Part shown: piece after piece, positions 18,848-38,245 of the stretch
Numbering within the stretch: position 1 is the first letter of the stretch
Layout of the letters: every line of letters starts with the position of its first letter
Origin: Vulcanimicrobiota bacterium
GTDB taxonomy: Bacteria > Vulcanimicrobiota > Vulcanimicrobiia > Vulcanimicrobiales > Vulcanimicrobiaceae
NCBI GenBank assembly: GCA_963812155.1
Contig: CAWETW010000002.1
Location: forward strand, 384,001-448,000
Reading direction: 5' to 3'
Length of the DNA stretch: 64,000 nt
Translations under genes and position numbers: made by a program
Notes under the pieces: model-generated
Database searches by the model: none
Told to the model about the DNA's origin: nothing
Seen by the model: only the letters and a program-made list of their open reading frames with translations

Positions 18848-18950
18848 AGGGAAGCTCGGATTTAGCTCAACTCGTTGTCAACGAGGGCCTCCTTTACCGT
18901 AGTAAACTTCAGCCCTCGTTTCCTAGATTTGAGCGAAATCTGAGCTTCCT
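18848..18950 (-). repeat. Copy A of the ~100-nt palindromic repeat / structured RNA candidate
   Basis: Outer arms GGAAGCTC...GAGCTTCC; core shared with 31609-31710 and 38142-38245; lies between convergent genes. Confidence 0.85.
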
Positions 18951-18965
18951 TAAGACACAGCCCTT

Positions 18966-21581
18966 TTACGTGAGTTTTTTCTTGGCGGCCGGCGCGGCCG
19001 CTTTTTTCTTTCGCGTCGCCGGCGTTTTCTTTGCCGCGGGTTTTTTCGCCTTAGCCGGCGCTTCGCCGGTTTCCGCAACGGCTTTCTTGCGCGTACGTTT
19101 CGGCTTTGCTTCGGCTGCGGGTAACGCCGCGATCGCCACGCTCTGCAGTTTCTTGGGCGCTGCCGCAGGCTCGGCGGCGGTGCGACGGCGCCGTGCGGGT
19201 TTGGTTTTCGCAGGCTCTTCGCGAACGGCCGCGAGGCTCGGCGGAGGCGCTTCGACCGCCGGCGCGGCCGGGCGCCTGCGGTCCAGCGCGCGCGACGGTT
19301 CGCGCGGAGCCGTCCGGCCGGTCGGGGCGGCGGCGCCGTCGGAACCAACGCGGAAGATGTGGCGGTCGGGCATGGGGCGCTGCGGGAGCGACCCCGTCAT
19401 CGGCTCGACCCCATCGCCCGCTTGCGATCCGCCACGGCCGCGGCGGCGCCGGCGCCGCCGGTGGCGCTTAGCATCGCCGGCGAGTCCGTCGATCGGTGAA
19501 GCCGCGTGAGGCGGTTCGGCATCGCTGCTTTCCACCCGCTCCGGCGCTGCCTTGACGTCGGTGGTCTGAAAGGGCGCGTCGTTTGCGCGTCCGCCCCGCC
19601 CCCGGCGCCCGCGGCGGCGGCGGCGGCGTTTGTGCCCGTCGCCCTCCTCGCCCTCGCCGTGGCGGATCTCGCCGCGCGAAATGATGATCGCATCGGCCTG
19701 CTCCTCACCGCGCCGCTCCGCCAAGAGCGCTTTGTCCTGCGCCTCCTCTTCCTCGGTTGCGGTGGTGATGCCGATCGGGGGCCGCGCCGACGCGTGATGC
19801 GCCGCCTCTTCGGCGAGTTCGCGTAACTGCTTGGCCTGTTCGGCCGCCGTCGGCGCGGCTTTGCCGCGACCGCGCCGGCGTTTCTTCGCCGCCGAAACGC
19901 CGGCCGTTACGAGTTCGGCCAGCACGTAATCCTGTTCGTCGTCGACGTCGAGCACGCGAATGCGCGCCGTGTTGCCGGCACTGTTGGCACCGTTCTCCAC
20001 CTCGACCACGCGGTTGGCGACCACGGCCGCCGCCGACGTCGGATTTGGAAGACGTCCGGGAAGCAGTTCGACGTCGTGCTCGTCGCCAACGCGAACCACT
20101 TGGCCCGGCGCCTCGTGGAGGCGTCCGAGGTCGATGCGCGACTTTTCGGGATGCAGCATTGGGTCGACGCGCACGTGGATCGGATGGCCGAGCCGCCGAG
20201 CGAGTTCCTCGCACTCGTCCTCGTACCAAAAATCCATCTGCGTCGCCACGGTTGGCGCGACGTAGGCCACGATCTGACCCGCGCCGTTTCCGGAGCTGCG
20301 GATGTGGCGGAACGTTTCGATCGCGACCGACTGTGCGGACATCACGCTGCCCATGCCCGAACACGTCGGACACGACCCTCGCAGTTGCGCGCCCAGATCC
20401 TTTCCGACGCGCTTGCGCGTGAACTCGAGCAACCCGAGATTCGAAAAGGATTGAATGGTTGCGCGCGTGCGGTCGCGACGCAGGCCGTCTTCCAGCGCTT
20501 TGATGACTTTGCTGCGCGACGCTTCCGACGCCATGTCGATAAAGTCGACGACGATGATGCCCCCGATGTCGCGCAGGCGCACTTGACGGGCCAGTTCGCG
20601 CGCGGCTTCCAGGTTCGTGGTAAGGATCGTATCTTCGAGATTGCGGCCGCCGGTGAACTTCCCGGAGTTGACGTCGATGACGGTCAACGCTTCGGTGGAT
20701 TCGATCACGATCGACCCGCCCGAAGGCAGATTGATCTTCGGTTTCATGAGCTTCTGCAGCTCCTCGCCGATGTGGAAATCTTCGAACAGCGACGCGCCGC
20801 CGTTATAGTGCTCGACGCGGTCGAGATACTGCGGCCCGAGCAACTGCAGAAAGTCGCGAACCTTGCGGTACTCTTCTTCGTCGTCGATCAGCACGCGCTC
20901 GACGTCGGCGGTGATGAAGTCGCGCGCCGCCTTGTAGATGAGGTTCATGTCTTTGTGCAGCAGCGAGGGTGCCGGAGCGCGTTTGTAGGTCTCCAGAATT
21001 CCGTGCCACATGCGAATGAGCACGCCGAGATCCGCGATGAGTTCGGCTTCGCTCACGCCCGCGGCCGCGGTTCGCACGACGGTCGCCATGCCTTCGGGAC
21101 GGATGCGCTTCATCACGCCCTTGAGCCGGTCGCGTTCCTGCGCCGATTCGATCTTGCGCGAGACGCCCGAATACTTGCCGGTCGGCATCAGAATCAAGTA
21201 GCGGCCAGGCAGGGAGATGTTCGTCGAAATGCGGGCGCCCTTGAGGCCGCGCGGCTCCTTGACGATTTGGACGAGAATGTCGTCGCCGCGCTTGACTTTC
21301 TCGCCGATCGTGAAGCCGCTATGGCCTTGCGTGATCTCGACGTCGCCGATGTTGAGCGGCTGCTTGTTGATGTCGTCGACGTACAGGAAGGCGTTTCGCC
21401 CCAGCCCGATGTCGACGAACGCCGCTCCCATTCCGGGCAGCACGTTCTGGACTTTTCCTTTGAAGATCGAGCCGATGACTTTCTCTTCGCGCTCGATGTA
21501 GAGTTCGGCGAGATCGCCGTTCTCTAAGATGGCGACCCTGTTTTCCCACGGGTCACTCGAGATCAAAATCTCGGTCGACAA
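18966..21581 (-). CDS. rne: Ribonuclease E/G family with long disordered basic C-terminal tail
   Basis: S1 domain (GKVQNVLPGMGAAFVDIG), IDVNSG, GGIIVVDFIDM, CPTC; Arg-rich and Lys-rich tail. Confidence 0.92.
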   Translation of the reverse strand: MSTEILISSDPWENRVAILENGDLAELYIEREEKVIGSIFKGKVQNVLPGMGAAFVDIGLGRNAFLYVDDINKQPLNIGDVEITQGHSGFTIGEKVKRGDDILVQIVKEPRGLKGARISTNISLPGRYLILMPTGKYSGVSRKIESAQERDRLKGVMKRIRPEGMATVVRTAAAGVSEAELIADLGVLIRMWHGILETYKRAPAPSLLHKDMNLIYKAARDFITADVERVLIDDEEEYRKVRDFLQLLGPQYLDRVEHYNGGASLFEDFHIGEELQKLMKPKINLPSGGSIVIESTEALTVIDVNSGKFTGGRNLEDTILTTNLEAARELARQVRLRDIGGIIVVDFIDMASEASRSKVIKALEDGLRRDRTRATIQSFSNLGLLEFTRKRVGKDLGAQLRGSCPTCSGMGSVMSAQSVAIETFRHIRSSGNGAGQIVAYVAPTVATQMDFWYEDECEELARRLGHPIHVRVDPMLHPEKSRIDLGRLHEAPGQVVRVGDEHDVELLPGRLPNPTSAAAVVANRVVEVENGANSAGNTARIRVLDVDDEQDYVLAELVTAGVSAAKKRRRGRGKAAPTAAEQAKQLRELAEEAAHHASARPPIGITTATEEEEAQDKALLAERRGEEQADAIIISRGEIRHGEGEEGDGHKRRRRRRGRRGRGGRANDAPFQTTDVKAAPERVESSDAEPPHAASPIDGLAGDAKRHRRRRRRRGRGGSQAGDGVEPMTGSLPQRPMPDRHIFRVGSDGAAAPTGRTAPREPSRALDRRRPAAPAVEAPPPSLAAVREEPAKTKPARRRRTAAEPAAAPKKLQSVAIAALPAAEAKPKRTRKKAVAETGEAPAKAKKPAAKKTPATRKKKAAAPAAKKKLT

Positions 21582-21764
21582 AATTGTCCTCTAGCCGTTC
21601 GGATCGCACCGGCGCGCCGGTCTTTTGCAGCCGCTGCGCCGCAACTCGGCGGGGGCAAAAGTCCCCGCGGTCGCGGTTCGCTGCGGGCGACGCTTGGCGT
21701 CGCGACGGGCAACCCTAGAAAAAATTTTTTGAAAAAGGCGGTTCCGGCGGGGTCCTTTCCCGCC

Positions 21765-21780
21765 GGTCCGGAACCGGACC
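21765..21780. promoter_or_regulatory. Palindrome GGTCCGG-AA-CCGGACC, candidate operator
   Basis: Perfect 7-bp arms; near-identical site at 47330-47345; both lie in divergent intergenic regions. Confidence 0.35.
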
Positions 21781-21787
21781 TTCCCAC

Positions 21788-22187
21788 ATGAGAACCGTCG
21801 GAAGGTGGGCGTTCGTTGCACTCCTCTTCAGTGCGGCCGCCGCATGCAGCCGTGGCCCGGGCCCCTCGCGCATTGCCGACCCCCTACCTGGGCACGCTGC
21901 TGGACGACACCCTCGTCGAGGCTTCGACGACGGTCCTCGTGACCAAGCGCGACGTCGTCATCGCCTTGAATTGTGCCCCGCTCGCCGGCGCGATCGCCGC
22001 GAACGACGAACCGGCTATCGATCGGGCCGTCGCAGACAAAGCGGTCGCCCGCCTACCGGCCGGCGTGACCATTTACACGCCTCCTTTCTCGGCGCAGAAC
22101 CCGCGTGCGGCGCCGCTCGTCGTCACCGACGACAAGCACGCCGGGCGGCTCTGCACGCCCAACGCTTACGACGTCGTCAAGCAGTAG
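21788..22187 (+). CDS. Putative lipoprotein; probable frameshift near 21855
   Basis: MRTVGRWAFVALLFSAAAACS lipoprotein-like signal; protein-like sequence continues in the frame of ORF 21816-22187. Confidence 0.45.
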
Positions 22188-22196
22188 CGGCGACGA

Positions 22197-23330
22197 TTAG
22201 GCGTTTCCGAGCACGTCGCGGTCGCGCTGGGAGTGAACGTTGAGCAGGATGCCGACCGCGGCGAAGCCGGTGAGGATTGCCGAACCCCCAAACGAGACGA
22301 AGGGCAGCGGAATGCCCGTGATCGGCATGATCCCGACCGTCATTCCGACGTTCACGAGGATGTGGAAGAAGAACATCCCCACCAGCCCACCCGCGAGAAG
22401 AAACCCGAACCGGTCGCGCGCCGCAAGCAGGCTGCGCACCGCGCCGTAGAGCAGCACGCCGTAAATCGCGAGCAGCCCAATCGCCCCGGCAAAGCCCCAT
22501 TCTTCTGCGAGCACGGTGAAGATAAAATCGGTGGAGTTTTCCGGCACGAAGTTCAGCTGCGTCTGCGTGCCGTGATATAACCCGCGCCCGAACAACTCGC
22601 CGCTTCCTACCGCGATCTTCGACTGATTGAGACTGTAGCCCGAACCGAGCGGGTCGAGCTTCGGATTGAGAAAGACGAAGAGCCGCGCCTTTTGGAACGG
22701 TTTGAGGACGGCGTTCGTGCCGATCGCGACGGCGGCCACGAGCAGCACGCCCAACGCGTACACGGCGAAGTCGCCGAGCTTGGGCAAGCCGAGAAAGAGT
22801 TGCGCCGTCAGGATCGCGAGCAGCACCAGCGCCGTGCCCAGATCGGGCTGCTTGAGAATCAGCAGCGCGGGAATTGCGACCGTGAGCAGCGGTTTCCAGA
22901 GATCTTGCAGCTTATCGTAACGGCCGCGGCAAAGCACCGCGGCCAGCGATATGGCCAGCACGAGTTTGGCCGGCTCCGACGGTTGAAACGTACCGAGCGG
23001 TCCCAGCGAGATCCAGCGCTGCGCGCCGAGCGCGCTGTGGCCGCCCCGCAAAATAAAGAGCAGCAACAGCAGGTTGACGACGTAGAGTCCGGGCGCCCAA
23101 CGCTGCCAGTTGCGGTAATCCACGAGCGAGACGACGACCATGAGCACGACGCCCAAACAGATGTAGAGAATCTGCCGGTGGGCTTCGCCGGCGAACTGCG
23201 CGTTGTGCAGGCTCGCCGATCCGATGCAGACGACGCCGATCGCGGTCGCGGCAACGGCCGCGATTGCCAGCGGCCAATTGTAATTCCGTAGGAACCGCCT
23301 GGTTCCGGTGCCGAGGGTGAGCGTGGCCAC
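22197..23330 (-). CDS. rodA: Rod shape-determining protein RodA (SEDS family)
   Basis: GAQRWI, FQPSEPAK, KQPDLGT, VPENSTDFIF, PITGIPLPFVSFGGS. Confidence 0.95.
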   Translation of the reverse strand: MATLTLGTGTRRFLRNYNWPLAIAAVAATAIGVVCIGSASLHNAQFAGEAHRQILYICLGVVLMVVVSLVDYRNWQRWAPGLYVVNLLLLLFILRGGHSALGAQRWISLGPLGTFQPSEPAKLVLAISLAAVLCRGRYDKLQDLWKPLLTVAIPALLILKQPDLGTALVLLAILTAQLFLGLPKLGDFAVYALGVLLVAAVAIGTNAVLKPFQKARLFVFLNPKLDPLGSGYSLNQSKIAVGSGELFGRGLYHGTQTQLNFVPENSTDFIFTVLAEEWGFAGAIGLLAIYGVLLYGAVRSLLAARDRFGFLLAGGLVGMFFFHILVNVGMTVGIMPITGIPLPFVSFGGSAILTGFAAVGILLNVHSQRDRDVLGNA

Positions 23331-23361
23331 GCGCTACCGTTCGAGCGCGCCGGACGAGCGC

Positions 23362-23831
23362 CTACGGTGCGGCGGCAGCCGCCGCTTTGGATTTTTTGCG
23401 CCGGCGGCGCTTGCGTTTCGCCGGCGTCGCGGGTGGCGTCTCCGCGGACGGCGTCTCCACGGCCGGCGTCTCCGCCGACGGCGTTCCGTGACCGTTCGAA
23501 GCGGCAACGCTGACGGCCGCGATGGGTTCCGGCGGCGCGCCGGCCGCCGGCTCGGCCGCGACCGCGTGTCCGTTGGTGCGGTTCACCGCGAGTGATCGGA
23601 ATGTTCGCGAGCATGGCCAAGCGTCCGGTCTTGCTGCTCGAACGTGACGTCGATTCGCTCGCGGTCGACTTCGACGTAGCGTGAGATCACGTCCACGAGA
23701 TCGCGTTTCATCGCGTCGATCATCTCGGGCGCGAGTGCCAGATGATCGGTCATCAAAACGAGGCGCAGGCGTTCCTTGGCCGTCGAGCTCGATCCGGACT
23801 GACCGAAAAGGCGTTTGAGAAAATCGATCAT
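23362..23831 (-). CDS. minE: MinE with extended C-terminal tail; frameshifts near 23620 and 23590
   Basis: MIDFLKRLFG, TAKERLRLVL, MKRDLVDVISRYV, then MLANIPI and an Ala/Pro-rich basic tail in shifted frames. Confidence 0.85.
23435..23479. repeat. 15-nt imperfect tandem repeat x3 within the minE tail
   Basis: GGCGTCTCCGCGGAC / GGCGTCTCCACGGCC / GGCGTCTCCGCCGAC, encoding SAETP AVETP SAETP. Confidence 0.7.
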
Positions 23832-24684
23832 GCCCGCTTACCTCCGAAGATCGAGCCGATGCGCTCGAGGAGGCTGCGGTTCTCCCGGGGCATCGGCGCG
23901 GGAACGTCTTCGCCGGCGACGCGCGCCGCAATCGCGCGATACGCGGCGCCCGTAGGCGCGTCGTCGCGCAGCGCCAGCGGTTCGCCGCGATTGGTCGCGA
24001 CGATGATTTCCGGCTCGTCGGCGATCACACCGAGCAGCGGGAGCCGCAGAATCGCGTTGACGTCGTCGACCGAAAGCATCTTGCCTTTCTTGACGAGATG
24101 CGGACGCAGGCGGTTGATGATGAGTTGCGGCTTGAACGCGTTGCCGAGCAATCCGACGACGCGATCGACGTCGCGAACGGCCGAGACCTCGGGCGTGCAG
24201 ACGACGATCGCCTCGTCGGCGCCGACGACGGCGTTTTTGAAGCCCAGTTCGATGCCGGCGGGCGAATCGATCAGCACGTAGTCGAAACGTTCGCGCAGAC
24301 CGTGCGACGAGCGCGCGCATCTTCTCGGTGTCGACGTCTTCTTTTTCGCGCGCCTGCGCCGCGGCCAGCAGACGCAGCGTGGGCGCGTGCTTGTCCGGTA
24401 CGAGCGCATCGTCGAGCGTCACCTTGCCTTCGAGCACGTCGAGCAGGTGATGCTTGACGCGGCTTTCGAGGCCGAGCACGATGTCGAGATTGCGCAATCC
24501 GACGTCGGCATCGACCAGCACGACCGACGCGCCGCGTTGCGCGAGCGCGGTGCCGAGATTGGCGGTCGTCGTCGTCTTGCCGACGCCGCCTTTGCCCGAC
24601 GTGATGACGATCGCGCGGCCCAGCGCGCGCCGGCTGAGCTTGCGCCGCCGTATCGTCGCGCTCTTGCGGAATGAGAACGTGCAT
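23828..24684 (-). CDS. minD: Septum site-determining ATPase MinD, paralog 2; frameshifts near 24625 and 24300
   Basis: ITSGKGGVGKTTTTANLG, DADVGLRNLD, IDSPAGIE, TPEVSAVRDVDR; C-terminal SLLERIGSIFGG. Confidence 0.9.
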
Positions 24685-24685
24685 G

Positions 24686-25477
24686 CTACCCCGCTTTCAG
24701 GGCGTCGATCAGACGCCCGAAGAATCCTTGGCCCGCGAAACTCGTGAACGGCACGATCTCGCCCTCGAGCCGGCGTGCGATCTTGTCGTAGATAGTGCGC
24801 ACGCGGCTGTTCGGGTCGAGCACGACGGGTTCGCCGCGATTGGTCGTGTCGATGATCTCTTCGTCGTCGGGAACGATGCCGAGCAGTTCGACTGCCAGAA
24901 TTTCGCAGACGTCGTCGACCGAGAGCATGTCGCCGCTGCGCACCATTTCGGCACGCAGGCGGTTGACGATCAGCCGAATCGGCTTTCCGCGATCGTCCAG
25001 TTTGCCGACGACGCGGTCGGCGTCGCGAATCGCGCTGACCTCGGGCGTCGTCACGACGATCGCTTCGGCCGCGCCGGCGACCGCGTTGCGAAAGCCCGTT
25101 TCGATGCCGGCGGGACAGTCGATCAGCACGTAATCGCTTGTTCGGCCGCACGCTCGACGATCGACGCAAACTGCTCCTCGGAGATCGCATCCTTCTCGCG
25201 CGTCTGCGCGGCCGGCAGAATCGAGAGCGACTCGAAGCGTTTGTCTTTGATCAGCGCCTGACGCAGCTGGCAGCGTCCTTCGGCGACTTCGACGAGATCG
25301 AAGACGATGCGCTTCTCCAATCCCGAGCACGAGATCGAGATTGCGCAATCCGATGTCGGCGTCGATGAGAATGACGCGCTTGCCGCGCTTGGCGAGCGCG
25401 GCACCGAGATTGGCGGTCGTCGTCGTCTTTCCGACGCCGCCTTTGCCGGAGGTGATGACGATCCGCCGCGCGTTCAC
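24686..25477 (-). CDS. minD: Septum site-determining ATPase MinD, paralog 1; two compensating frameshifts near 25322 and 25140
   Basis: ITSGKGGVGKTT, DADIGLRNLD, IDCPAGIE, TPEVSAIRDADR. The middle segment (GLEKRIVFDLVEV...) is in ORF 25123-25404. C-terminal GFFGRLIDAL. Confidence 0.9.
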   Translation of the reverse strand: MNARRIVITSGKGGVGKTTTTANLGAALAKRGKRVILIDADIGLRNLDLVLGIGEAHRLRSRRSRRRTLPAASGADQRQTLRVALDSAGRADAREGCDLRGAVCVDRRACGRTSDYVLIDCPAGIETGFRNAVAGAAEAIVVTTPEVSAIRDADRVVGKLDDRGKPIRLIVNRLRAEMVRSGDMLSVDDVCEILAVELLGIVPDDEEIIDTTNRGEPVVLDPNSRVRTIYDKIARRLEGEIVPFTSFAGQGFFGRLIDALKAG

Positions 25478-26349
25478 GAGCCTGCCGCTCCGCGTTCGAA
25501 GTCGTCGAGCTTGTCGTAGGGAACGAGGGCGATGCGGCCATCGCGTACGACGGCTGCGTGTGGACGCGGGATGGCCGCCGGCGGGCACTCTTCGGACGCG
25601 ATATACGTTGCGATGCGAAGCTGCGTCGCGTCGAGGTCGAGCGCGTACACGCGGGCCGCTTCGTCGCCTTGCGCGCCGGCATGCGCGACGCCGGCCAACC
25701 GCCCGAAGACGACAACGTCGCCGCTGGCGATCAGTTCGGCGCCGGGATTGACGTCGCCGACGACGACGATGTGTCCGACGTGATGCAGCGCCTGGCCGCC
25801 GCGCAGGGTGCCGGAGTGGTAGAGCGTCGGGGGCGGCGCCTCGACCAGGTGTAGAACCGGCGTCTCCGGGACGGACGAAGGCTGCGGCTGCTGTTCCGGC
25901 CGGCGGACGCTTGCCTCGCCGCGCCGGCGCCGGTCCGCGATATCGGCGCGGGCTCCCGCGAAATCCGCGACCAGCGAACGGGCGGCCTCCGACAACCCAG
26001 CGTCGGAAAGGTCGGCGTCGCGCGGCGTTCGCAGGGCCCGGCGGCGTTCGAGCTCTCCGACCGGGCCGGCGGTTTCATATCGGAGCCCGGTCGCTTCGGC
26101 GACCGCCTGCACCGCGCCTGAACCGGCGAGCGCGCGCAGTTCGATGCCTGCATCGGAGAGCAGATCGAGCAAACGCGCAAGCTCACCGGCATGCGGAGCG
26201 GAGGCGCCAAAACTCGCGGTCGCCGAGACGCCCCGATAGAAGCCCGGCCGCTCCGCAAGGCGAGCTTGCAATTCGTCGAAGGCCTCGTCGAAATCGCGAC
26301 CTGCAAGCGCAATTTCGAGGCCTTGTTTCCTGCCGCGTAAGAGTGTCAC
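25474..26349 (-). CDS. minC: Septum site-determining protein MinC
   Basis: TLRGGQ, VVVGDVNPGAELIASGDVVVFGRLAGVAHAGA, QLRIA. Confidence 0.92.
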   Translation of the reverse strand: MTLLRGRKQGLEIALAGRDFDEAFDELQARLAERPGFYRGVSATASFGASAPHAGELARLLDLLSDAGIELRALAGSGAVQAVAEATGLRYETAGPVGELERRRALRTPRDADLSDAGLSEAARSLVADFAGARADIADRRRRGEASVRRPEQQPQPSSVPETPVLHLVEAPPPTLYHSGTLRGGQALHHVGHIVVVGDVNPGAELIASGDVVVFGRLAGVAHAGAQGDEAARVYALDLDATQLRIATYIASEECPPAAIPRPHAAVVRDGRIALVPYDKLDDFERGAAGS

Positions 26350-26420
26350 GAGTCTGTTACGAATACTCCGACGGTACGATGTTCCGCCCCGTTCATAGCG
26401 GGTGCGCCCCGCACCCGCCT

Positions 26421-26460
26421 TCATCCACAAACGACTCGCAAGTTCTTGCCGTTATCCACA
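26421..26460 (+). promoter_or_regulatory. DnaA boxes upstream of minC
   Basis: Perfect TTATCCACA at 26452-26460 and a one-mismatch TCATCCACA at 26421-26429. Confidence 0.55.
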
Positions 26461-26524
26461 TGTCGTGCACAGCGGTCACGCTGCAACATCGGCGGCCGCT
26501 CCGGAGTACCGTGAGGGAAAGACC

Positions 26525-28578
26525 ATGATTCGCAGACTCGCGTCCGCCGTCGTCCTGATTTCAATGGCGATCGCCGCCGTCCCGGCGCCGGTCAAAGCCA
26601 TGTCGACCGCCGCCGAAATTCAACTCGGCCAGCAGGAGGACCAGCAGATCGTCGCCGGGAGCGTCATCGAGACGGATCCGCTCCTCAACGCCTACGTCCA
26701 AGGCATCGCCGAGAATCTTTGGAATCAGGTCGCCCGCAAAGACGTCCCGTATTCGGTGAAGATCATCAAGGACGACAGCATCAACTCGTTCGCGACGATG
26801 GGCGGCTTCGTCTACGTCAACGAGGGGCTGGTCGACTTCGTGCAGTCCGACGACGAACTCGCCAGCGTGGTCGGCCACGAGACCGGCCACATCGAACGCC
26901 GTCACGTCATCACGACGCAATCGAAGGCGGAAATCCTCAACATCCTGTTCGGCATCGCGTCGCTCTTCTCGCCGCTCATCTACAACTTCGGCGGACTTGG
27001 CCGAGGCGGGCTTCATGGCGAAGATCTCGCGCGAAGACGAGCTGCAAGCCGACCGCTACGGCCTTCAGTTGATGTCGCGCGCCGGATACGATCCGGAGTC
27101 GATGGTCACGATGATGGCGCACCTCGCCGTGCTTCAGGACGAGAAGAGCGATCTGGTCACGAAGTATCTCGAGGACCATCCGGATCCGAAGAAGCGCGTG
27201 GCGCATCTGATGGGCTATCCCGAACTGGATCCCAAGGACGTGACGCCGACGCAGCAGCTGGTGCAATCCTCGAGCGACGAGGAACGCGCGCGCTACGAAT
27301 TCGGTTCGATCCGTCTGGCGAACGTCTTGAAGAACGACCCGCAAAATGCCGAGGCGCTGCTGGAGATGGGCCAGTCGGATCTCGCGCTCGGCTTAACGAG
27401 CAAGAGCCGGCAGACGCTCGCCGAAGCCGCGCAGCTCGGATCCGCGCAGACGCGCGCCGCAGCCGATCAGCGCATCGCTTCGCTGCGGCAGATGGAAACG
27501 CAGCGGGTTACGCTGACGCATCCGAACCTTCCCAAACTGCAGAGCGCGGTGCAGGCGGCGCAGGCCTCGCAAATCGAGGCCGCGACGCAAATCGCGGCGC
27601 GGGCGGCAGAAGCCAAGGACCAGTTCAAGGCGATCAACGGCCGCGTGAACTCGCTGCAGTACGAGATTCCCGACTTCAGCCGCATCAACATCCGGCGCGG
27701 CTCGCGCGTCGAAGCGATCGTGAAGAATCTGACTTCGATGTCCCGTTCGATCGACAGCGCGCTGCAGGACGCGCGCGCGCCCATCGGCGGCGTCGGCACG
27801 CTCGAGCGAGACAAGGAGACCGGGCTGCTCAAGGACGGTTCCGAAATCTACGCCGAGATGCTGGCGCCGTTTGCGACGCCGCCGCTGGGAGCCGACGCAT
27901 TCGCGATTCTGCCCTCGTATCCGCTGATGCTCAACGAACTCTCGCTCGCCGACGGCGACATGCTCCGCTCGGTCGACGCCGCGCGAGCGTCGCTGACCCA
28001 AGCTCGATCAGTCGGTCGGCGACCTCGACGAGTTCTTGAAGCAGCTCGATCACGTGCAAGTGAGCTTCAACGGCGACATCAGTGAGAGCGCGTATGCGTC
28101 GCTGCAGCCGGTGATGGAGAAATCGATCGCCGACTTCAACGCCGCAGCATCGTCGGCTTCGCAAGCGTCGCAGCTCTACAACATGGCGCGCACGCGCCAG
28201 TTGTCGGCGCGCATCTCACTGCTCGGCCTCGGCACGTCGCCGCAACGCTATTCGACGCTCCAATACGCGCTGCAGCAGCGCTTCGGAATGCCGGGCGTCG
28301 ACTACCGTACGATGCTGCGCGACGGCTTGACGCCGGGAGACGTGACGCTTGCCACGATCGTTGCGGCCGACGTTAAGAGCACGCCCGAGGCGATTATTGC
28401 GGAAGCCAGGAGTTCGAAGCAGACGATGGTCGACGTCGCCAACGCGCACGGCATGCACGCATGGCCGCTCGAAATCTTTACCGGCTTAGTTTATCTCGAT
28501 TACACCGACGACCCGATGAAGGAACTTCGCCGGGCCGACGGTACCGAAGCCGCCACGCTCCAGGAGTTGGGGCTGTAG
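26525..28578 (+). CDS. Exported M48 metalloprotease with helical/TPR-like C-terminus; frameshifts near 27000 and 28003
   Basis: INSFATMGG, ELASVVGHETGH, SREDELQADRYG, EDHP across three consecutive ORFs. Confidence 0.85.
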
Positions 28579-30401: not shown

Positions 30402-31610
30402 ATGCGTCAATCAAGGCTTTCGCGCGCTTTGCGCCGCTTCGCCCCCGCGTTTCTTCTCGCGGTCGTGGCGGCTTCCGGCTGTTCTGCAAACGGCAGCGCC
30501 GGCTCGTCGCTGCCGAGAGGCTTTTCGCCTGCGGGCTTGGCGCATCGCGCAGGCCACGCGTCGACCGGTCTCGGCGCGATCCTCACGACCGCGAACCACG
30601 GCCAAATTTTCGGTTTCGACATCGATCAAAACGGCGGCGACGGCGTGCTCGCGACGGCCGCCAACGTCGAGATGTTCGACCAGGACGACGGACGGATTAC
30701 CCGATCGATTCCCCAGAAGACGCCGCAGGGAACGACCTATGGCATGGACGGGATCTTCGGACACGACGTCGGCTTAGTCACGCGTTACGTCGTGCCCAAA
30801 GGCTCGATCTACGCTCACCGGTATTACAACGTCATCAGTCCGGTAACCAAAGGCAAGTTCGACGCGAAATGGAAGCCGCCGATTCCCGACGTCGACGTGT
30901 TGCAGGGCGGCAACAATCAAAGCACGTCGACGAGCGTGCTGTTTGCCATCGAGCTGAAGAATCAGGACAATCCCGACCTCTTCGTCACGAACATCGCCGC
31001 CGACACGATCAGCAAGGTGATCCATTTAGACCCCAACGCGTTCGGTCTCGCCGACGGTCCTCAACTAGCTCAATACACGAGCGCCAACGAGGCCGTCATT
31101 GCATATTCTCCCGACGGCGGTGCCGTGGGCGGCCGCCCGCCGATCAACGGAATCTTCAATCTTTCGACGGGTCAGGAGACGAAGCTCATCGGCTACAATC
31201 TCGGACCGTACCACGCCGGCTACGTCAACGGCTTGGCGGTCGATCCCAACACCGGCATCGCTGCCACCACGACCGAGCTCAACGCCCAAGTCGAATTCTA
31301 CGACTTGAATAAGAAAGAGGGCATCACCGCGGTGCAGTTGCCCTGCACCGGCAATACCGACCAAACGTTGAGCGGATCGGGAATCGCAGTCGATCCCATC
31401 AATAAGCTCTTCCTGGTTTCGGAGCAGTACTATTGCCAGCAGAACCAGGGGAGCGCGATCGTCGTCTACGACGAGCAGGGAAACTTGGTCGAGACGATTA
31501 CCGGCTTTACGTTCTCAATCGGGGAGCCGGCCGCCGTCCTTAATCCGAGCAAGCGGATGGGGTGGACGTTCGGCCCCCACTTCGATCAGCTGCAACAGTT
31601 CTTCTACTAG
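30402..31610 (+). CDS. Secreted lipoprotein, probable beta-propeller
   Basis: GGAGG RBS; lipobox ASGC; repeated GLAVDP/GIAVDP blades. Confidence 0.75.
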   Translation: MRQSRLSRALRRFAPAFLLAVVAASGCSANGSAGSSLPRGFSPAGLAHRAGHASTGLGAILTTANHGQIFGFDIDQNGGDGVLATAANVEMFDQDDGRITRSIPQKTPQGTTYGMDGIFGHDVGLVTRYVVPKGSIYAHRYYNVISPVTKGKFDAKWKPPIPDVDVLQGGNNQSTSTSVLFAIELKNQDNPDLFVTNIAADTISKVIHLDPNAFGLADGPQLAQYTSANEAVIAYSPDGGAVGGRPPINGIFNLSTGQETKLIGYNLGPYHAGYVNGLAVDPNTGIAATTTELNAQVEFYDLNKKEGITAVQLPCTGNTDQTLSGSGIAVDPINKLFLVSEQYYCQQNQGSAIVVYDEQGNLVETITGFTFSIGEPAAVLNPSKRMGWTFGPHFDQLQQFFY

Positions 31611-31710
31611 GAAGGCCTCGTTTATCCCAACTCGTCGTCAGCTCAGGCCTCATTTACCGCAGTAAACCTCGACCCTCGCTTCCTGGATTTGGAATAAATT
31701 CACTCTTCCT
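31609..31710 (-). repeat. Copy B of the ~100-nt palindromic repeat / structured RNA candidate
   Basis: AGGAAG...CTTCCT termini, TTTATCCCAA/TTGGAATAAA arms, conserved core; fills the gap between convergent stop codons. Confidence 0.85.
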
Positions 31711-31712
31711 GA

Positions 31713-31973
31713 TTACGTAGCTTGCGGTTGCGGCTGACTTCCGCTTCCGTTCGTGGTCGTCGAGCTCGAACTGTTTTGCGTGCTCGAACCGTTCGCAGCG
31801 TTGCCGTTGGCCGGCTGGGTCACGGTGGTCGTATTCGTCGTTGACGTCGTGCTCCAAGGATGCCAATAGAGCAGTGCGCCGACGACGACGATCACCGCGA
31901 TGACCAAAATAGCGATTGCGGTCGTGCTTGGTCCCGATCCGTCGCTTACGACGATGTTCCGATCGTCATGCAT
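31713..31973 (-). CDS. Small single-TM protein with Ser/Thr-rich tail
   Basis: GAGGAGG RBS; one hydrophobic helix. Confidence 0.7.
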   Translation of the reverse strand: MHDDRNIVVSDGSGPSTTAIAILVIAVIVVVGALLYWHPWSTTSTTNTTTVTQPANGNAANGSSTQNSSSSTTTNGSGSQPQPQAT

Positions 31974-32120
31974 GCCGTTACCCTCCTCAAGTGGTTCGCC
32001 GCACGGCGGATCCGCGCGGCCATTGGCCCATACTGCCCCGCATTTCTCGCATCCAAACCTGAAAGCTCAACCAAGGGGCTTTCGGGTTTCGCGACGAGCG
32101 GCCCGGGGTAATCACGGCGC

Positions 32121-32336
32121 ATGAGCGATCAAATAAAGAAAGCCGGCGCCGATTTGCACGACGCCGCAGAAGAAATCAAACACCGGACGGTTGCCGAGGG
32201 CGAGCGGTTGAAGCGCGACGCTTTAGGAGACGAACTCACGACCGGAGAAAAGATCGAGTCGGGCGCAAACGAGCTGAAGAACCGGACGCAGGCCGAGATA
32301 GACAAAGCCAAACGCGGCCTACGCGACCACACCTGA
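32121..32336 (+). CDS. Small hydrophilic helical protein (CsbD/LEA-like)
   Basis: 71 aa, rich in K, E and A. Confidence 0.55.
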   Translation: MSDQIKKAGADLHDAAEEIKHRTVAEGERLKRDALGDELTTGEKIESGANELKNRTQAEIDKAKRGLRDHT

Positions 32337-32355
32337 AGCGACGACGTTAAGCGCC

Positions 32356-32544
32356 ATGCCGATCATCGAAGTCTGCATCGTTCTCGTCGTCGTCGGCGTG
32401 CTGCTGTGGCTCGTCAACACGTATATTCCGATGGCCGCCGGCGTTAAGTCGTTACTCAATGCCGTCGTCATCATCTTCCTCATCGTCTGGCTGCTCCGGG
32501 TCTTCGGGCTCTGGAACTACATCACGCACCTGCACGCGAGCTGA
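32356..32544 (+). CDS. Small two-TM protein (Thivi_2564-like)
   Basis: LVVVGVLLWLVNTYIPM...LNAVVII pattern. Confidence 0.7.
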   Translation: MPIIEVCIVLVVVGVLLWLVNTYIPMAAGVKSLLNAVVIIFLIVWLLRVFGLWNYITHLHAS

Positions 32545-32580
32545 CGCGCGGGCTGATTGAAAACGCTTCCTTCGGCGACA

Positions 32581-33156
32581 TCATTTCGCAAGCGCGTTTG
32601 CGGCGACGATGGCGGCCGCCAGCGCGAGTTTGTGGTCCTGGTTCCATGGGGATCCGAGGCTCCTTCGCAGATCGAGGAAGTGTGCGTCGAAGCTGTCGAG
32701 CCCCAGCGCGCGGCCGGCTTCGCTACAGACGTTTTTAGGTTCGAACCAATACACGGGTAGAGCGCGCGCCGCCGCCGCCGAGGCCAGGACGTCGCGGTAC
32801 ATCACCCAGTCGGCGACGTTCCGCGCCACTGGATCGTTGATTCGTTCTGCAATCGTCGGCGGAAGCGGCTGGCGTTCGCGAAGGGCTATGCCGAAAACAT
32901 CGCCGACGTCCTTCGTCACCGCATCGAGCGCGATGGCCGCATACCTCTCAACCGATGCGCGCACGCGTTCCACCAGCGCAACGCCCTCGTCGGACGAGAG
33001 CATCTGAGCTTCGTGGTGATGCGGAATCGCCGGCAAGTCGTCATCGACGAGTTCCACACGCCGCCGGTCGAGCAGCGTGCCGTCGCGCGCCGCGGTCACG
33101 AGCACGGCCCAACCGCCGTGGTCCGATATCCCGATGACGCCACCACTTTTCGACAT
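32581..33156 (-). CDS. Hypothetical protein
   Basis: AAAGGGA upstream; GVIGISDHGGWAVLV...DRRRVEL...PHHH. Confidence 0.7.
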   Translation of the reverse strand: MSKSGGVIGISDHGGWAVLVTAARDGTLLDRRRVELVDDDLPAIPHHHEAQMLSSDEGVALVERVRASVERYAAIALDAVTKDVGDVFGIALRERQPLPPTIAERINDPVARNVADWVMYRDVLASAAAARALPVYWFEPKNVCSEAGRALGLDSFDAHFLDLRRSLGSPWNQDHKLALAAAIVAANALAK

Positions 33157-33247
33157 CACGATCCCTTTCATCTCACGTAACACAAGGCCAATTCGTCCTC
33201 TTGAGCACGCCAATCACGTTTTTATCGGACGGCGGTTGCTAAGGAAA

Positions 33248-34795
33248 TTACCTTGATGATCTCGAGATAAAGGCAGCTGGTTTCAGTGCGCCAACGCACG
33301 ATGTATCGGGCGCAACCTTCGGATCGGCATAGAACGAAACGATCACTTTTTGTGCACAGGGAGACCAGGGTGAGACGGTGTGCCCGACGCCCGGGATGGC
33401 GATGAGCGTTGCGTGGGATAGCCGCGCTGCCGCTGCCTTCGCTCCCGCGAACGACGTCAACGTGTCGAACGTTCCGGAGAGAAGGAGCGTCGGAATGTTG
33501 CTGGCAACGGGCTCGTGCATTGATTTCGGGGCGAGGGGAAGTTTCCAGACGTCGCGACAGTCTTCTTGAACGTAAGCCCAGCCGCCGATACCTTCACGTT
33601 GCACCGAGGCCGGATAATCCGGGAACGCTTCTCGTCCGGCCGCGGCGAGTTCTCGCGGCGTCCCGAGGTGATCTTCGCGGCAGGTGGTACCGACCGCGAG
33701 ACCGTCGCCGAGAGCAGGTGCGCCTGGATGATAGGGCGGCGCTCGGCTTGCCCGATCCTTAGCAATCGCCTCGATGGAATCGGTGCGGCCGGCCGCGAGT
33801 CCCCCAATTGTATCGGGCGCGGCTTGAAGTGTGGGGATGCCGTACGTTTGGTTGCGCAGCCAATCGATGAGTGCCCCGCCATCGAGCATCACCTTGATGT
33901 TCTTGCCGGTGTTGGGGTCGCTGATTGTTGGCGTCAGCGGCTTGGCTTCGAGCTTATTGACCAGTTTGGTAAAAGTCCGCTCGAGATGAGGGTGGGCCGC
34001 GTTGCAGGCCGGTTGCGCTTCGCAGGCGTCAAAGAGGTTGTCGAAGCCAGAGCGCGCGTTCCACCAGTTTACCGCGATGCTGTAGCTCGTCGGTAGGACG
34101 GAGTCCAGAACGACGCTGCGGATCCCCTCCGGATGCTCGCGCATAAGCGTCTGCGCGGTATACGTGCCGAACGAGTTTCCGTAAACGTTCCACTCGGCAA
34201 TGCCAAGCACTTTGCGGAGATCGACCAAATCGGCCACGCTCTCGGTCGAATTATAAGCGCTGAGATTGGCGCCGGTGGCCGTGAGTTCGTCTCGGCAGGC
34301 TTTGGTTGCAAGCAAGTGGGCACGCTTTGTTGCCTCGGAATAAAACCGAAGGCCAAGTAACTCTCCGGCGAAGTTGTTACTTGCCGCGCAGATCAGCGCC
34401 GGCTTTGAGGACCAGGTGCCGCGTTGACTCACGACCCAGATGTCCCGGTCGCGAATAAAGTTCGCCTTGATGATCTGGTCGATTTCAAGCGGAGCAATAT
34501 CGCCCGGCCCACCTTCAAGGTACAGAACCGGATCGGGCCGCTTTTCCGACGATTGCGCTCGATGTCTTGCGACCATGATCCGAATGGTGCGACCGTTCGG
34601 CCTACTGCGATCCTCCGGGACGACAAGATACCCGCAGTCTGCGTTGGCAAGCCATTCTACGCCCCCAATTTTCGAGCACGTCGCCCGCTCGAAGCGTGGC
34701 ACGGCTGCCGGCCGATCGGCCCGTACGACTTGCGCCGTAACGGATAAACCAAACAGAATGGCGAGCGCCAGGAGATGTCGGCGGTTGATCGTCAT
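33248..34795 (-). CDS. Secreted alpha/beta hydrolase with TAP-like C-terminal domain
   Basis: YLEGGPG, QRGT, GNSFG nucleophile, VVLDS, GTFDTLT, GVGH. Confidence 0.9.
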   Translation of the reverse strand: MTINRRHLLALAILFGLSVTAQVVRADRPAAVPRFERATCSKIGGVEWLANADCGYLVVPEDRSRPNGRTIRIMVARHRAQSSEKRPDPVLYLEGGPGDIAPLEIDQIIKANFIRDRDIWVVSQRGTWSSKPALICAASNNFAGELLGLRFYSEATKRAHLLATKACRDELTATGANLSAYNSTESVADLVDLRKVLGIAEWNVYGNSFGTYTAQTLMREHPEGIRSVVLDSVLPTSYSIAVNWWNARSGFDNLFDACEAQPACNAAHPHLERTFTKLVNKLEAKPLTPTISDPNTGKNIKVMLDGGALIDWLRNQTYGIPTLQAAPDTIGGLAAGRTDSIEAIAKDRASRAPPYHPGAPALGDGLAVGTTCREDHLGTPRELAAAGREAFPDYPASVQREGIGGWAYVQEDCRDVWKLPLAPKSMHEPVASNIPTLLLSGTFDTLTSFAGAKAAAARLSHATLIAIPGVGHTVSPWSPCAQKVIVSFYADPKVAPDTSCVGALKPAAFISRSSR

Positions 34796-34891
34796 GGCTT
34801 CTTTCTATATGCACCGAACGCGTTGGCTCGAAAACATTTTCTACCTCCTGCGTTGCAGCAACGTTTTTCGCCGCTTTGCCAACCGAAGGGT

Positions 34892-35431
34892 CTATGGTTT
34901 TCTCGGTAGAGATTGGACTAGGTGCCCCTTTAGCTTGGGGTCCTCGAGCGGTTGAGATTCGAAGATCGGTCGCAGGAATGACGCGAACTCCGGTTCGATT
35001 GCCGCGCGCGTTACGGCATTATCGAAAATTGCACGCGTGATCGGCATGCGGGCGACGGGAACGAATGAGGCCATCCAGTTGCGCCAGAAATGATCTCCGA
35101 CAATCGAATCCTTACGCAGAAAGTACATGTCTTGCAAGTCGTCGATAATATTGCGCACCACGACCGTAGACTCGATGCTCGGGACATCCGGGTACAACTC
35201 ACGCATTTCCGGATTTGCTTCCAGATACATTGCCATAGTACCGGGATTGCGGATGAGACTCATTCGCGCCTGATACATTCGCTCCGACATCGCTTGCTGC
35301 ACTTCGAGAGTGGACGCCAGATGTGCCGCGTCTGCTTGCCTACGCGAGTGCAGCGCTTGCGTACGCGCGTACACTAGCGATAACATGCCGATCGCCATAC
35401 CGGTGGCGCCGAAAATAAGCCCTAAATCCAC
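34892..35431 (-). CDS. Membrane-anchored hypothetical protein
   Basis: 179-aa ORF with N-terminal TM helix; GC lower than the flanks. Confidence 0.65.
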   Translation of the reverse strand: MDLGLIFGATGMAIGMLSLVYARTQALHSRRQADAAHLASTLEVQQAMSERMYQARMSLIRNPGTMAMYLEANPEMRELYPDVPSIESTVVVRNIIDDLQDMYFLRKDSIVGDHFWRNWMASFVPVARMPITRAIFDNAVTRAAIEPEFASFLRPIFESQPLEDPKLKGHLVQSLPRKP

Positions 35432-35671
35432 AACACTTCCCCGATGACGCTATAGCCTGTTTTCGCAAACGTATCCTTTTTTCTCGTGAATGCCTCGGGC
35501 CCCTGACCCGTCCGCGCACGGCTGACCGAGCGTGGCCACGATAGAAGCCTTCGAGAGGGACTGGTATTTGGACAGCGGCAACGCCCTGATAAATGCGAGG
35601 GTCTTCCTCCGGGGTGGCGGAGAACGTAGGCACGTGGTCGCATTGGCGTTACGAAGATGGATTGAGTTCGT

Positions 35672-36097
35672 ATGAACGTACAAGAACAAATTAAAGAGTA
35701 TCTTACCAGCCAACCTGAGCCAAAGCGTAGTGATATGCAAGAGTTGCACCACCTCACGCTTCACGTTTTACCAGGTTGTAAATTATGGTTCGACAATGGT
35801 AAAAACAGCGAAAACAAGACCGTTAATAACCCTACTATAGGCTATGGATTTCACACCATTAAATACGCTGATGGAAAGACCAGGGACGTGTTTCAAATTG
35901 GTTTGAGTGCAAACAAAACCGGAATCTCCGTCTACATCCTCGGTATCAAAGATAAGACACACTTAGCCCAAACGTATGGAAACAAATTAGGCAAGGCGAG
36001 CGTGACCGGGTATTGCATTAGGTTCAAAACGCTAAAAGATATAAACATTGATATACTTGAAGCGGCAATACGATATGGGGTAGAGGCGCCGCATTAG
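35672..36097 (+). CDS. DUF1801 domain protein, AT-rich
   Basis: PTIGYG, IGLSANKTGISVY, LGKASVTGYCIRFKTLKDINIDIL. Confidence 0.85.
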   Translation: MNVQEQIKEYLTSQPEPKRSDMQELHHLTLHVLPGCKLWFDNGKNSENKTVNNPTIGYGFHTIKYADGKTRDVFQIGLSANKTGISVYILGIKDKTHLAQTYGNKLGKASVTGYCIRFKTLKDINIDILEAAIRYGVEAPH

Positions 36098-36125
36098 TAG
36101 ATAAGGAGTGCATGCCGTGCACGAA

Positions 36126-36572
36126 ATGGACTCGAACGAAGACCTACGCGCGACGCGCACCCGCTACTACGAGCGGTACGCGTTTCCGCTCTTCAGCCAC
36201 ATCGACTTTCGCGTCAGCGACGCCGATGCCGTGCGACCATTCTACGACGCGCTGATGCCACTGTTCGGTACCGAGCCCACGACGGTGCGCGTCGCGCGCT
36301 ACGGATATACGCGGCGCTACGGCACCGTCCGGGCAGATTTCTTCAACGTGTTCGAAGACCCGGACGCGCGCCCGACGGCGACGCGCATTGCATTCGCGGC
36401 GCCCAGCACCGATTTCGTCGATGAGGTCGCCCGGGTCGTACGCGCGCACGGCGGGCAAAACGTGGACGGTCCCGGGTACTTCGCGCAGCACCATCCGACG
36501 TTCTATGCGGTCTTCTTTGAAGATCCGCTGGGCAACCGCCTAGAAGTCTGCCATCACCGCATGGACAAATAG
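36126..36572 (+). CDS. VOC/glyoxalase family protein
   Basis: FSHIDFRVSD, PFYD, IAFAAPS, YAVFFEDPLGNRLEV. Start codon uncertain. Confidence 0.85.
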   Translation: MDSNEDLRATRTRYYERYAFPLFSHIDFRVSDADAVRPFYDALMPLFGTEPTTVRVARYGYTRRYGTVRADFFNVFEDPDARPTATRIAFAAPSTDFVDEVARVVRAHGGQNVDGPGYFAQHHPTFYAVFFEDPLGNRLEVCHHRMDK

Positions 36573-36712
36573 CGTCTAAGATCTACGTCTGGCGTTCATC
36601 CGGCGAATGCGGCTTGGGTCGTATTCCTCATATAGCCGCCGGTTCAACCAATTGTTTGCCGTTGACGGTGCCGAACGCTTGATTTCGATGCGATCGCCAT
36701 CCACTCGTCGCT

Positions 36713-37015
36713 CTAAAGCGTCGAGTCGTCGTAGCCGTCGACGACGATGAGATCCGTCGTGCTGATCTGTTGACGCAACGCCTTGGCGGGTGCGTATTCG
36801 GGCGAGTTCCACCATTCGATGGCTCGTTCAAACGCTTCGAACGTCAGGACGACGATTCGCGTGGGCGCCCACGCCCCTTCTAGCACGGTCATGGTGCCGC
36901 CGCGAGCGAGGTAACGGCCTCCGTATTGCGCCACGGTTCGCTGTGCGAGATCCTTGTACGTCTGGTACTTGGCCGGATCGACGGTTGCAACGTTGACGAT
37001 GACGTAAGCGGCCAT
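36713..37015 (-). CDS. DUF1330 domain protein
   Basis: AGGAGA RBS; YGGRYLARGG, LEG.W.P.RIVV, WWNSPEY. Confidence 0.92.
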   Translation of the reverse strand: MAAYVIVNVATVDPAKYQTYKDLAQRTVAQYGGRYLARGGTMTVLEGAWAPTRIVVLTFEAFERAIEWWNSPEYAPAKALRQQISTTDLIVVDGYDDSTL

Positions 37016-37165
37016 ACATGTCTCCTAGGATGAATCCGGATCGAATGCGTTAGACGCGGTAACGCCGGGCGGCAAGGCATGATGCACGAACCGGAGCCGT
37101 CCAACCTGCTTCACGAAGATCGCCGCGGCTGCGGGGTGCGGAGCGACAGCCGAGAACTAAGGCGC

Positions 37166-38170
37166 GTGCGGCAATCGGCCTTTATCGAAAAACGTTCGCA
37201 ATCGTGGGAACGGCTCGATGCGCTCGCAACGAAGGCCGGGAGGAAAGGCGTTCGGGGACTCGGAGCCGGCGACGCCGACGAACTCGGCCGGCTGTATCGC
37301 GCCGCGACGAGCGACTTGTCGTATGCCCGCGGACGCGAGTTCGATCCGGCGCTCGTCGAGTACTTGAACCGGCTGGCCGCACGGGCGCACGCGTACGTCT
37401 ATGGCGGCTCGGCGCAAACCGGCGGCGCACGTATATCCGCCTTCTATCGGGAAACGTTTCCGCGCGAGTTCCGGCGGTCGTTCGCGTACGTCGCGATCTG
37501 CACGGCGGTTACCGTCGCCTTCGCCGTCGTCGCCTTCGCCGTCGTACGCGCGCATCCGGCGGCCGCCTACTCGCTGCTTCCGTCGCAACTCGTGCCCGAC
37601 GAGATACGCAAGAGCCTGCACGACTCGAACTTCGCCTTCGATCACGACTTCGCGCCGGCGATGTCCGCCGCCATCATCACGAATAATATCCGCGTCGCAA
37701 TTGCCGCCTTTGCGGGTTCGGTCACGCTCGGCGCGCTGACGCTCTACATCATCGCCTACAACGGATTGATGCTCGGCGGCATGGGAGCGCTTTTTACCAA
37801 CGCCGGCTTCGGTTACGATTTCTGGGCGACGATTGCGCCGCACGGCGCGATCGAGCTCACCGCAATCCAAATCGCCGGCGCCGCCGGACTCCTGATCGCG
37901 GCCGGCGTGCTGTATCCCGGACGCTTACGCCGTAAGGAAGCGATCGTGCGTAACGCGCGCCGCGCCGGAACGCTGATCGCCGGCGTCGCATCGATGCTCG
38001 TCGTCGCCGGCACCATCGAAGGCTTCATCTCCCCGCAGCGCTGGCCGCCGCAAACGCGCGTAGGGTTCGGCGCGCTGACGGCCGTCGCGCTGGTGCTCTA
38101 CTTCGGCTTCAGCGGCCGCCATAAAAGAAAGTCCCATAAACAAGGGAGGTCTGACGTATTCCAAATCTAG
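37166..38170 (+). CDS. Stage II sporulation protein M-like (DUF95) membrane protein
   Basis: LYRAATSDLS, IITNNIRVA, IAPHGAIELTAI, AGTIEGFIS. The last codons and the stop lie inside repeat copy C. Confidence 0.9.
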   Translation: MRQSAFIEKRSQSWERLDALATKAGRKGVRGLGAGDADELGRLYRAATSDLSYARGREFDPALVEYLNRLAARAHAYVYGGSAQTGGARISAFYRETFPREFRRSFAYVAICTAVTVAFAVVAFAVVRAHPAAAYSLLPSQLVPDEIRKSLHDSNFAFDHDFAPAMSAAIITNNIRVAIAAFAGSVTLGALTLYIIAYNGLMLGGMGALFTNAGFGYDFWATIAPHGAIELTAIQIAGAAGLLIAAGVLYPGRLRRKEAIVRNARRAGTLIAGVASMLVVAGTIEGFISPQRWPPQTRVGFGALTAVALVLYFGFSGRHKRKSHKQGRSDVFQI

Positions 38171-38245
38171 GAAGCGAGGGTCGAAGTTTGCTACGGCAAA
38201 TGAGACCCGAGGTGACAACGAGTTGGGATACGTCAGGCCTCCCTT
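38142..38245 (+). repeat. Copy C of the ~100-nt palindromic repeat / structured RNA candidate
   Basis: Arms AAGGGAGGTCTGACGTATTCCAA / TTGGGATACGTCAGGCCTCCCTT; core inverted relative to copies A and B. Confidence 0.85.

Follow-up and report, generated by a model that had tools for sequence, protein, structure and literature searches.

A dispersed 100-bp palindromic repeat of a Vulcanimicrobiota genome: a candidate IS5-ended miniature element with an ERIC-type hairpin core

The 64,000-nucleotide stretch of a Vulcanimicrobiota genome analyzed here (the window) carries three full copies (A, B, and C) and one half copy (D) of a palindromic repeat of about 100 bp, as a first-pass annotation made from the letters alone had described. 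[quoted passage not shown] The repeat is short, non-coding, dispersed, and polymorphic between relatives, as MITEs are, and is likely to be a mini-transposon that hitch-hikes on IS5 and holds an old structural module acting as one strand. A non-autonomous mobile element was among the candidates of the first-pass annotation, and this candidate gains support from the IS5-type ends, from a CTAG duplication in a longer relative, and from the overlap of copies with stop codons at gene ends.

Copies, IS5-type ends, and target duplication

An iterated profile hidden Markov model (HMM) search of the 2.96-Mb host genome (G000, 84% complete) extended the finding from the window to 26 places, comprising 23 full copies, two halves, and one weak match, whereas the reversed genome gave zero matches at E≤1. 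In the register set by the IS5-type ends, 21 of the 23 full copies measure 99 to 101 bp. Compared pairwise, they show a median identity of 0.68 (range, 0.50 to 0.93), for which reason we call them old.

IS5 transposases (NF033581) were found in 25 of 206 genomes of the host family. An inverted-repeat search of IS5 loci, blind to the element, returned YTAR-flanked ends of the form GGMAGSTCTGA in loci L590, L593, L596, L598, L600, and L609, for example CTAG-GGAAGCTCTGA in L596 and L600, and NCBIfam confirmed the IS5 family for the loci with element-like ends. When the 46 arm ends of the 23 full copies were compared with IS5 ends, 29 agreed at no fewer than 11 of 15 bases, compared with 21 of 2,000 random stretches, a figure tempered by the list of IS5 ends used, which was compiled by means of a motif taken from the element and contains a small number of spurious entries. 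The copy at C2:194691 of G000 has ends that agree at 15/15. Among 75 family cores, YTAR is more frequent at registers 0 to +2 than at registers −1 to −3; its TA stands at many element ends and is eroded at others. A core search in 30 IS5 loci gave no match, which indicates that the core was acquired separately from IS5. IS5-type ends lacking the core are also present elsewhere in G000.

A longer relative of about 165 nt occurs in family f6 of the same phylum, with up to 59 matches per genome. One f6 genome (G184) reads CTAG-element-CTAG where two others (G189 and G196) hold a single CTAG. The comparison of empty and occupied sites thus revealed a clean target duplication in this relative. CTAG is found on both sides of 26 of the 38 f6 copies listed, and tandem copies share one CTAG. 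The target duplication of IS5 is also CTAG (PMC10379815).

Two further observations concern f6. In G184, left and right halves of the relative flank about 0.9 kb at L200:3018-4068 that reads by eye as a MazEF-type antitoxin-toxin pair, a possible case of cargo capture. The same genome holds a CTAG-flanked IS1634 element and an IS630 element that directly abuts an f6 half copy (L233:1201-3167 and L396:1411-2598).

Other transposases were considered as partners and set aside. DDE_Tnp_1, IS1634, and IS1182 elements in element-rich genomes have ends unlike those of the repeat, one IS1634 being CTAG-flanked. A Y1 transposase of the kind associated with repetitive extragenic palindromes (RAYT) was found neither in G000 nor beside any copy, and 16 Y1 loci held no element.

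The features of the window are as follows; copy C is inverted relative to copies A and B, as first described.

18848-18951, minus strand: copy A, full repeat
18850-18949, minus strand: copy A, the 100 bp between the IS5-type ends, from the genome profile search and end register
18950-18953, minus strand: YTAR (TTAA) at the 5' end of copy A
31608-31711, minus strand: copy B, full repeat
31610-31709, minus strand: copy B, 100 bp in IS5-end register
38142-38245, plus strand: copy C, full repeat
38144-38243, plus strand: copy C, 100 bp in IS5-end register
38144-38161, plus strand: copy C, left IS5-type terminal repeat, 12/15 identical to the best IS5 end
38226-38243, minus strand: copy C, right IS5-type terminal repeat, 11/15 identical
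38168-38219, plus strand: copy C, conserved core
38168-38172 with 38214-38219: copy C, lower loop
38183-38186 with 38201-38203: copy C, upper loop; a 10-bp middle stem with tandem G·A lies between the two loops
38192-38195: copy C, 4-nt loop of the core tip, on a 5-bp stem
10406-10452, minus strand: half copy D (3' half only), between co-directional genes
17463-18842, plus strand, and 18966-21581, minus strand: S41 peptidase and RNase E/G genes, neighbors of copy A

The two-loop core and its kin

On its plus strand, copy C forms a single long, unbranched hairpin with no junction or pseudoknot. Compared with shuffled sequences, the core strands of the three window copies gave z-scores of −8.6, −4.3, and −9.8, and the opposite strands gave −8.0, −1.0, and −7.1. 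The core strand was the better folder in 22 of the 23 full copies with RNA parameters and in 21 with DNA parameters, the asymmetry amounting to −10.3 and −3.8 kcal/mol, respectively. In an alignment of 38 copies from 8 genomes, 91.3% of the cells were paired, well above column shuffles (76.7%, a control that ignores kinship) and slid controls (34 to 49%), and two-sided changes were observed at 33 of 40 pairs. The covariation seen in the window is therefore borne out in a larger set, which together with covariation in the core supports selection on a single-strand fold, be it RNA or single-stranded DNA (ssDNA).

Two details of the first-pass description changed with the larger sample. The C(UNCG)G apical loop is present in all three window copies but in only 13 of the 23 full copies of the genome (TACG in 12, TGCG in one, TATG in seven, and other loops in three) and in 52 of 277 cores overall, so that the argument for selection drawn from this loop fails. 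The large internal loop, described as conserved in sequence, resolves into a G-C pair, two stacked non-canonical pairs, and a 2x3 loop, and shows covariation.

The core is the inner hairpin of about 52 nt with two non-canonical loops, in which A·G swaps for C·A. At the lower-loop pair of 173 cores for which both letters were left free, we counted A·G 97 times, C·A 75 times, C·G once, and A·A never; at the upper-loop pair of 277 cores, the counts were 205 for A·G, 58 for C·A, and 9 for A·A. C·A is able to replace a sheared A·G pair. In the same 277 cores, G·T occurs 853 times and A·C 337 times.

This core reaches far beyond the phylum of the host. A metagenome scan returned 121 loci with a GC content of 0.28 to 0.67, and the middle stem is paired in 109 of the 114 distinct matches. 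A GTDB scan that used the loop letters only returned at least 120 loci; those listed belong to Gamma- and Betaproteobacteria, Actinomycetota, Verrucomicrobiota, Planctomycetota, and Campylobacterota. Complementary stems are present in all 112 distinct GTDB matches listed, compared with 8 for shuffled letters and 27 for swapped halves. Many of the GTDB cores listed have short arms only and end at a tRNA. Viral contigs gave no match to two exact-geometry patterns, and the E. coli rrnG spacer contains no such core.

Regarding the family, which the first-pass annotation did not recognize, kin do exist, namely the IS5-type ends and both loops of the published ERIC consensus. In E. coli K-12, 13 repeats found from the aceF-lpd spacer fit this consensus, which is printed in Table 1a of PMC2759123. 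The shared loop modules and arm length are our own reading of the consensus and not a published criterion. The covariance model of the element (R1) gave no match in E. coli K-12 at E≤5, and MAFFT misaligns ERIC and the element. Since R1 misses ERIC, the kinship is architectural, and homology is what we infer from it. At the gathering threshold, Rfam 15 has no match in the window; sub-threshold matches were of the microRNA type only, on 5 loci. A literature search, with subscription papers outside its scope, returned no account of the element family or of an ERIC-type core shared across phyla.

Variants of the core were also noted in G000. At C3:624560-624820, an IS5-type end lies beside longer core variants missed by both the HMM and R1, so that more than one spacer length exists in this genome. 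A divergent core without IS5 ends (L043:3001-3102, corresponding to C1:247361-247462) is apparently located in the spacer on the downstream side of the 16S rRNA gene, a setting comparable to that of many rRNA-spacer copies in other phyla. A core is likewise found at the apparent groEL 3' end in G000 (C2:322233) and in distant Gammaproteobacteria, for example, Shewanella (L417, L418, L511, and L532).

Genomic setting and turnover

All full copies were first placed between convergent genes. With gene orientation in G000 taken from a home-made gene caller, this holds for 16 of the 23 copies, a strong enrichment over the 109 convergent cases among 965 spacers of at least 100 bp (p=3e-11), and the remaining seven lie between co-directional genes. 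A stop codon is overlapped or adjoined by 12 of the 23. Within the window, one end of copy B runs into the TAG stop (31608-31610) that closes the gene at 30537-31610. Copy C adjoins the stop of a DUF58 gene (38244-39569, minus strand), and a SpoIIM-domain gene (37166-38170, plus strand) terminates within its left arm. Half copy D directly follows the stop of an AhpC/TSA gene (10446-10850, minus strand). The flank of copy A opposite its TTAA reads CTTC, leaving no intact duplication around this copy.

Of 100 family genomes, R1 found matches in 64, each having 1 to at least 39. In a sample of the phylum, it matched 50 of 70 genomes of the host family and 4 of 19 genomes of f6, and it gave no match in 60 genomes from 19 other families of the phylum. 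Three genomes (G128, G124, and G070) are unpublished; they enter the 64/100 tally, one of the five doublets described below, and possibly the set of 277 cores, the orientation count being made from other genomes.

Turnover between relatives is high. At the site of copy A, the element was found in only one of 12 relatives (G001) and was absent from the other 11. The same site holds unrelated inserts of about 100 to 170 bp in G007 (L045) and G006 (L049), which suggests an insertion hot spot. Copy B is common to G001, where it carries a 36-nt insert, and G007; a soil contig of run X5 lacks it. G001, G007, and contigs of runs X5 and X6 either lack copy C or retain a relic of it; the soil contigs skip most of the copy, and G001 looks like a relic. 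The soil contigs that lack copy B or most of copy C, together with the relic in G001, indicate that many of the empty sites in the genus are probably losses.

Of the 23 copies in G001, the closest relative, 14 are common to G000, two of these being inverted in place. The nine that are missing in G000 include two collapsed relics and four sites occupied by a second repeat family. This second palindromic family has 166 matches to a TGTCAYCCTGAGC-like motif in G000, none of them in the window (example sites are C3:596172-596222 and C4:42517-42571), and it also lies within the ends of L600, an IS5 locus. The family is similar to the CGTC/TGTC-tagged repetitive extragenic palindromes (REPs) of PMC3733652.

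Amplification in place was also observed. At a site with a single copy in G000, seven units of about 96 bp follow one another head-to-tail in G011, and five head-to-head doublets occur in four genomes. In the arrays at L016:905-1583 (G011) and L009:1-170 (G003), the units of about 96 bp consist of the left arm, the core, and a new linker, and the right arm is present in the last unit only.

Mechanism, alternatives, and known systems

In the IS5 reading, the 100-bp repeat would have been copied to new YTAR sites by the IS5 transposase of a visiting IS that has apparently since been lost from the genome. Its outer 17 bp or so, which match ends of IS5 elements in the same bacterial family, would be the basis of this movement, and insertion would duplicate CTAG/YTAR, as it does in the f6 relative. 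YTAR provides a stop codon on both strands, so that insertions at gene ends would be harmless and survive, above all between convergent genes; survival alone may then account for the gene-end location. Without the transposase, copies erode, as is seen among relatives, by drift of the ends, deletion of the interior between short repeats, inversion in place, and tandem amplification. The core shows the pattern of a separate, older module kept as a one-strand fold. Most likely, it is a docking site for a protein that would act on ssDNA or RNA and aid movement or tolerance.

Several results, in addition to the make-up of the list of IS5 ends, weigh against this explanation. An identical 4-bp repeat on both sides was found for none of the 23 copies in G000, and identical 4-bp flanks at the exact register were found for only 2 of 75 family cores. 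IS5 transposase was not found in the high-copy genomes G000, G001, G061, G016, and G097, and an autonomous partner for the f6 ends was not found among the elements compared. ATTT at arm positions 11 to 14, which is part of the IS5 match, is also present in cores without IS5 ends. In G061 (10 copies), the outer 11 bp are only 61 to 64% identical, compared with 89 to 91% for the inner arm and core, yet the outer 11-bp pairs are kept in 104 of 110 cells. Ends that drift and remain paired are the opposite of the prediction from sequence-specific end binding. The pattern could also arise if arms drifting after insertion were corrected by template switching. Finally, in the orthologous pairs that could be scored (5 of 12), pairing was lost by 12 changes and retained as G·T by 5, with 2 further changes being compensatory, so old copies appear to be loosely held.

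These results bear on the best surviving alternative, which is that the hairpin core is itself mobile. An enzyme or host factor would read both loops on a single strand of DNA or RNA, insertion would take place at TA/YTAR or beside hairpins or tRNAs, the arms would need only to pair, and the IS5-like ends would have been picked up. We regard this as tentative and rather unlikely; it is kept alive by the G061 pattern, by the short-armed GTDB cores ending at tRNAs, and by the missing f6 partner. It also accommodates the five high-copy genomes searched that lack IS5 transposase, the occurrence of the core with other or short arms (49 of the 123 GTDB matches listed adjoin a tRNA end), a fixed geometry (a stem of 10 bp here and of 21 bp in ERIC, with the same 25 nt from TA to the lower loop), and the tandem arrays and head-to-head doublets, as in REP systems. 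Against it, open reading frame (ORF) clustering of the loci retrieved revealed no enzyme gene as a repeated neighbor of the element. This clustering returned orthologous host genes only, IS5 proteins being compared only through the core search of IS5 loci. Of 101 family genomes, 6 have Y1 transposases, and three of these are without the element. Moreover, the agreement of the arms with real IS5 ends is well beyond chance, and the f6 copies resemble an ordinary MITE burst.

It is improbable that the repeat is a transcribed hairpin kept as a processing, stability, or termination signal at gene 3' ends. The enrichment between convergent genes would fit such a signal, as would the larger strand asymmetry with RNA than with DNA parameters, the long retention at an operon site of Rhodocyclales-type genomes and in rRNA spacers, and the precedent of ERIC in Yersinia (reviewed in PMC2229807). 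The direction of transcription argues otherwise. The 79 family copies outside G000 comprise 37 between convergent genes, 23 with the better-folding strand untranscribed, 5 with it transcribed, and 14 unclear. The better-folding strand is thus untranscribed in 23 of the 28 resolved copies in co-directional spacers (p=0.0009, with kin not independent); the co-directional copies of G000 are 4 sense and 3 antisense. Beside tRNAs, 44 cores are antisense and 5 are sense among the 123 GTDB matches listed. Loss and inversion between close relatives are also frequent. A host RNA function predicts the opposite strand orientation and is disfavored for this reason; with 2 of 14 orthologous copies inverted and no Rfam match, neither the 3'-untranslated-region motif nor the ribozyme proposed at first finds favor. 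It is more likely that the fold matters during mobilization or that it is harmful when transcribed inside operons.

The Rhodocyclales-type site deserves a separate description. The core is kept there in antisense orientation (L257, L258, L277, L297, and about 20 further loci), between an ABC ATP-binding gene and a likely CoA-ligase gene, both named from reading the proteins. Retention at this site possibly reflects domestication.

Mobilization by IS630, with duplication of the TA inside CTAG as in RUP and under the ISfinder label for ERIC, is highly improbable. IS630 elements of the phylum are CTAG-flanked, a TA duplication agrees with flanks such as TTAG..CTAA, and MITEEc1 is placed under IS630 in PMC11602168. 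However, several of the CTAG-flanked IS630 elements have other ends, and none of the 46 arm ends matched those of the 9 IS630 elements tested at 11 or more of 15 bases, which led us to reject this partner.

A small self-cleaving ribozyme spreading through RNA is the least credible explanation, in that the conserved non-canonical loops and head-to-tail arrays that would suit it are set against one unbranched stem with no junction or pseudoknot, a folding strand that is mostly untranscribed, and Rfam matches to generic microRNA hairpins below threshold. K-turn, hammerhead, and hairpin-ribozyme geometries were likewise considered and are at odds with one unbranched stem with 3x2 and 2x3 loops.

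Returning to the IS5-ended MITE with an ERIC-type core, its interest lies in how ERIC and similar long palindromic repeats move, which is left unresolved in the reviews consulted (PMC2229807 and PMC2759123). The element offers two handles on this question. One is a named candidate transposase with matching ends. The other is the 52-nt core, whose defined non-canonical pairs, covarying A·G/C·A swap, and fixed spacing could be altered by mutation or serve as bait. Should the core be just a passenger, the element is an ordinary MITE; if a protein does read it, repeats from many phyla would be tied together and the ERIC question would become testable. A bolder proposal, which we hold to be unlikely, is that the two-loop hairpin is a pan-bacterial mobility module that is read single-stranded and is interchangeable between transposon ends, with its loops one or two helical turns apart, and that its binder is the long-missing mover of ERIC.

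Among known repeats, the apical motif of Rickettsia palindromic elements (RPEs) led to 51 related hairpins in contigs of a viral collection, of which some also have the lower loop, in a comparison that included no Rickettsia sequence. In contigs whose content reads as gene-transfer-agent clusters (L536-L586), a related apical motif is common, there combined with other lower loops. RPE peptide families (NCBIfam) match neither of the two open frames of copy C, and the element copies are intergenic, at gene ends. RPEs are nevertheless long palindromes of similar size (PMC2229807).

REPs and bacterial interspersed mosaic elements with RAYT resemble the element in their gene-end location, doublets, and tandem arrays. 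They differ in that REPs measure 20 to 40 bp (PMC3733652) compared with 100 bp here, and in the Y1 transposase that is lacking in G000 and beside every copy.

IS5 elements and their MITEs share with the element a terminal stretch of about 15 to 18 bp, GG...CC ends, YTAR flanks, and the same bacterial family; the MITEs are non-coding as well, with a CTAG duplication in the f6 relative. The differences are an interior that is not IS5 sequence, ends that vary more than the interior in G061, and the lack of a partner in G000.

ERIC, also known as IRU or RU-1, is the 127-bp enterobacterial repeat and, like the element, one long imperfect hairpin. At 100 to 104 bp the element is shorter, the ERIC upper loop has no bulged base, and the end sequences differ. 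The middle stem of ERIC measures 21 bp instead of 10 bp, about one helical turn more. What the two have in common is the lower loop (AAGGC/AACGCA), the 25 nt that separate it from the terminal TA, and a tip made of the upper tandem G·A, a G·T, a 5-bp stem, and a 4-nt loop.

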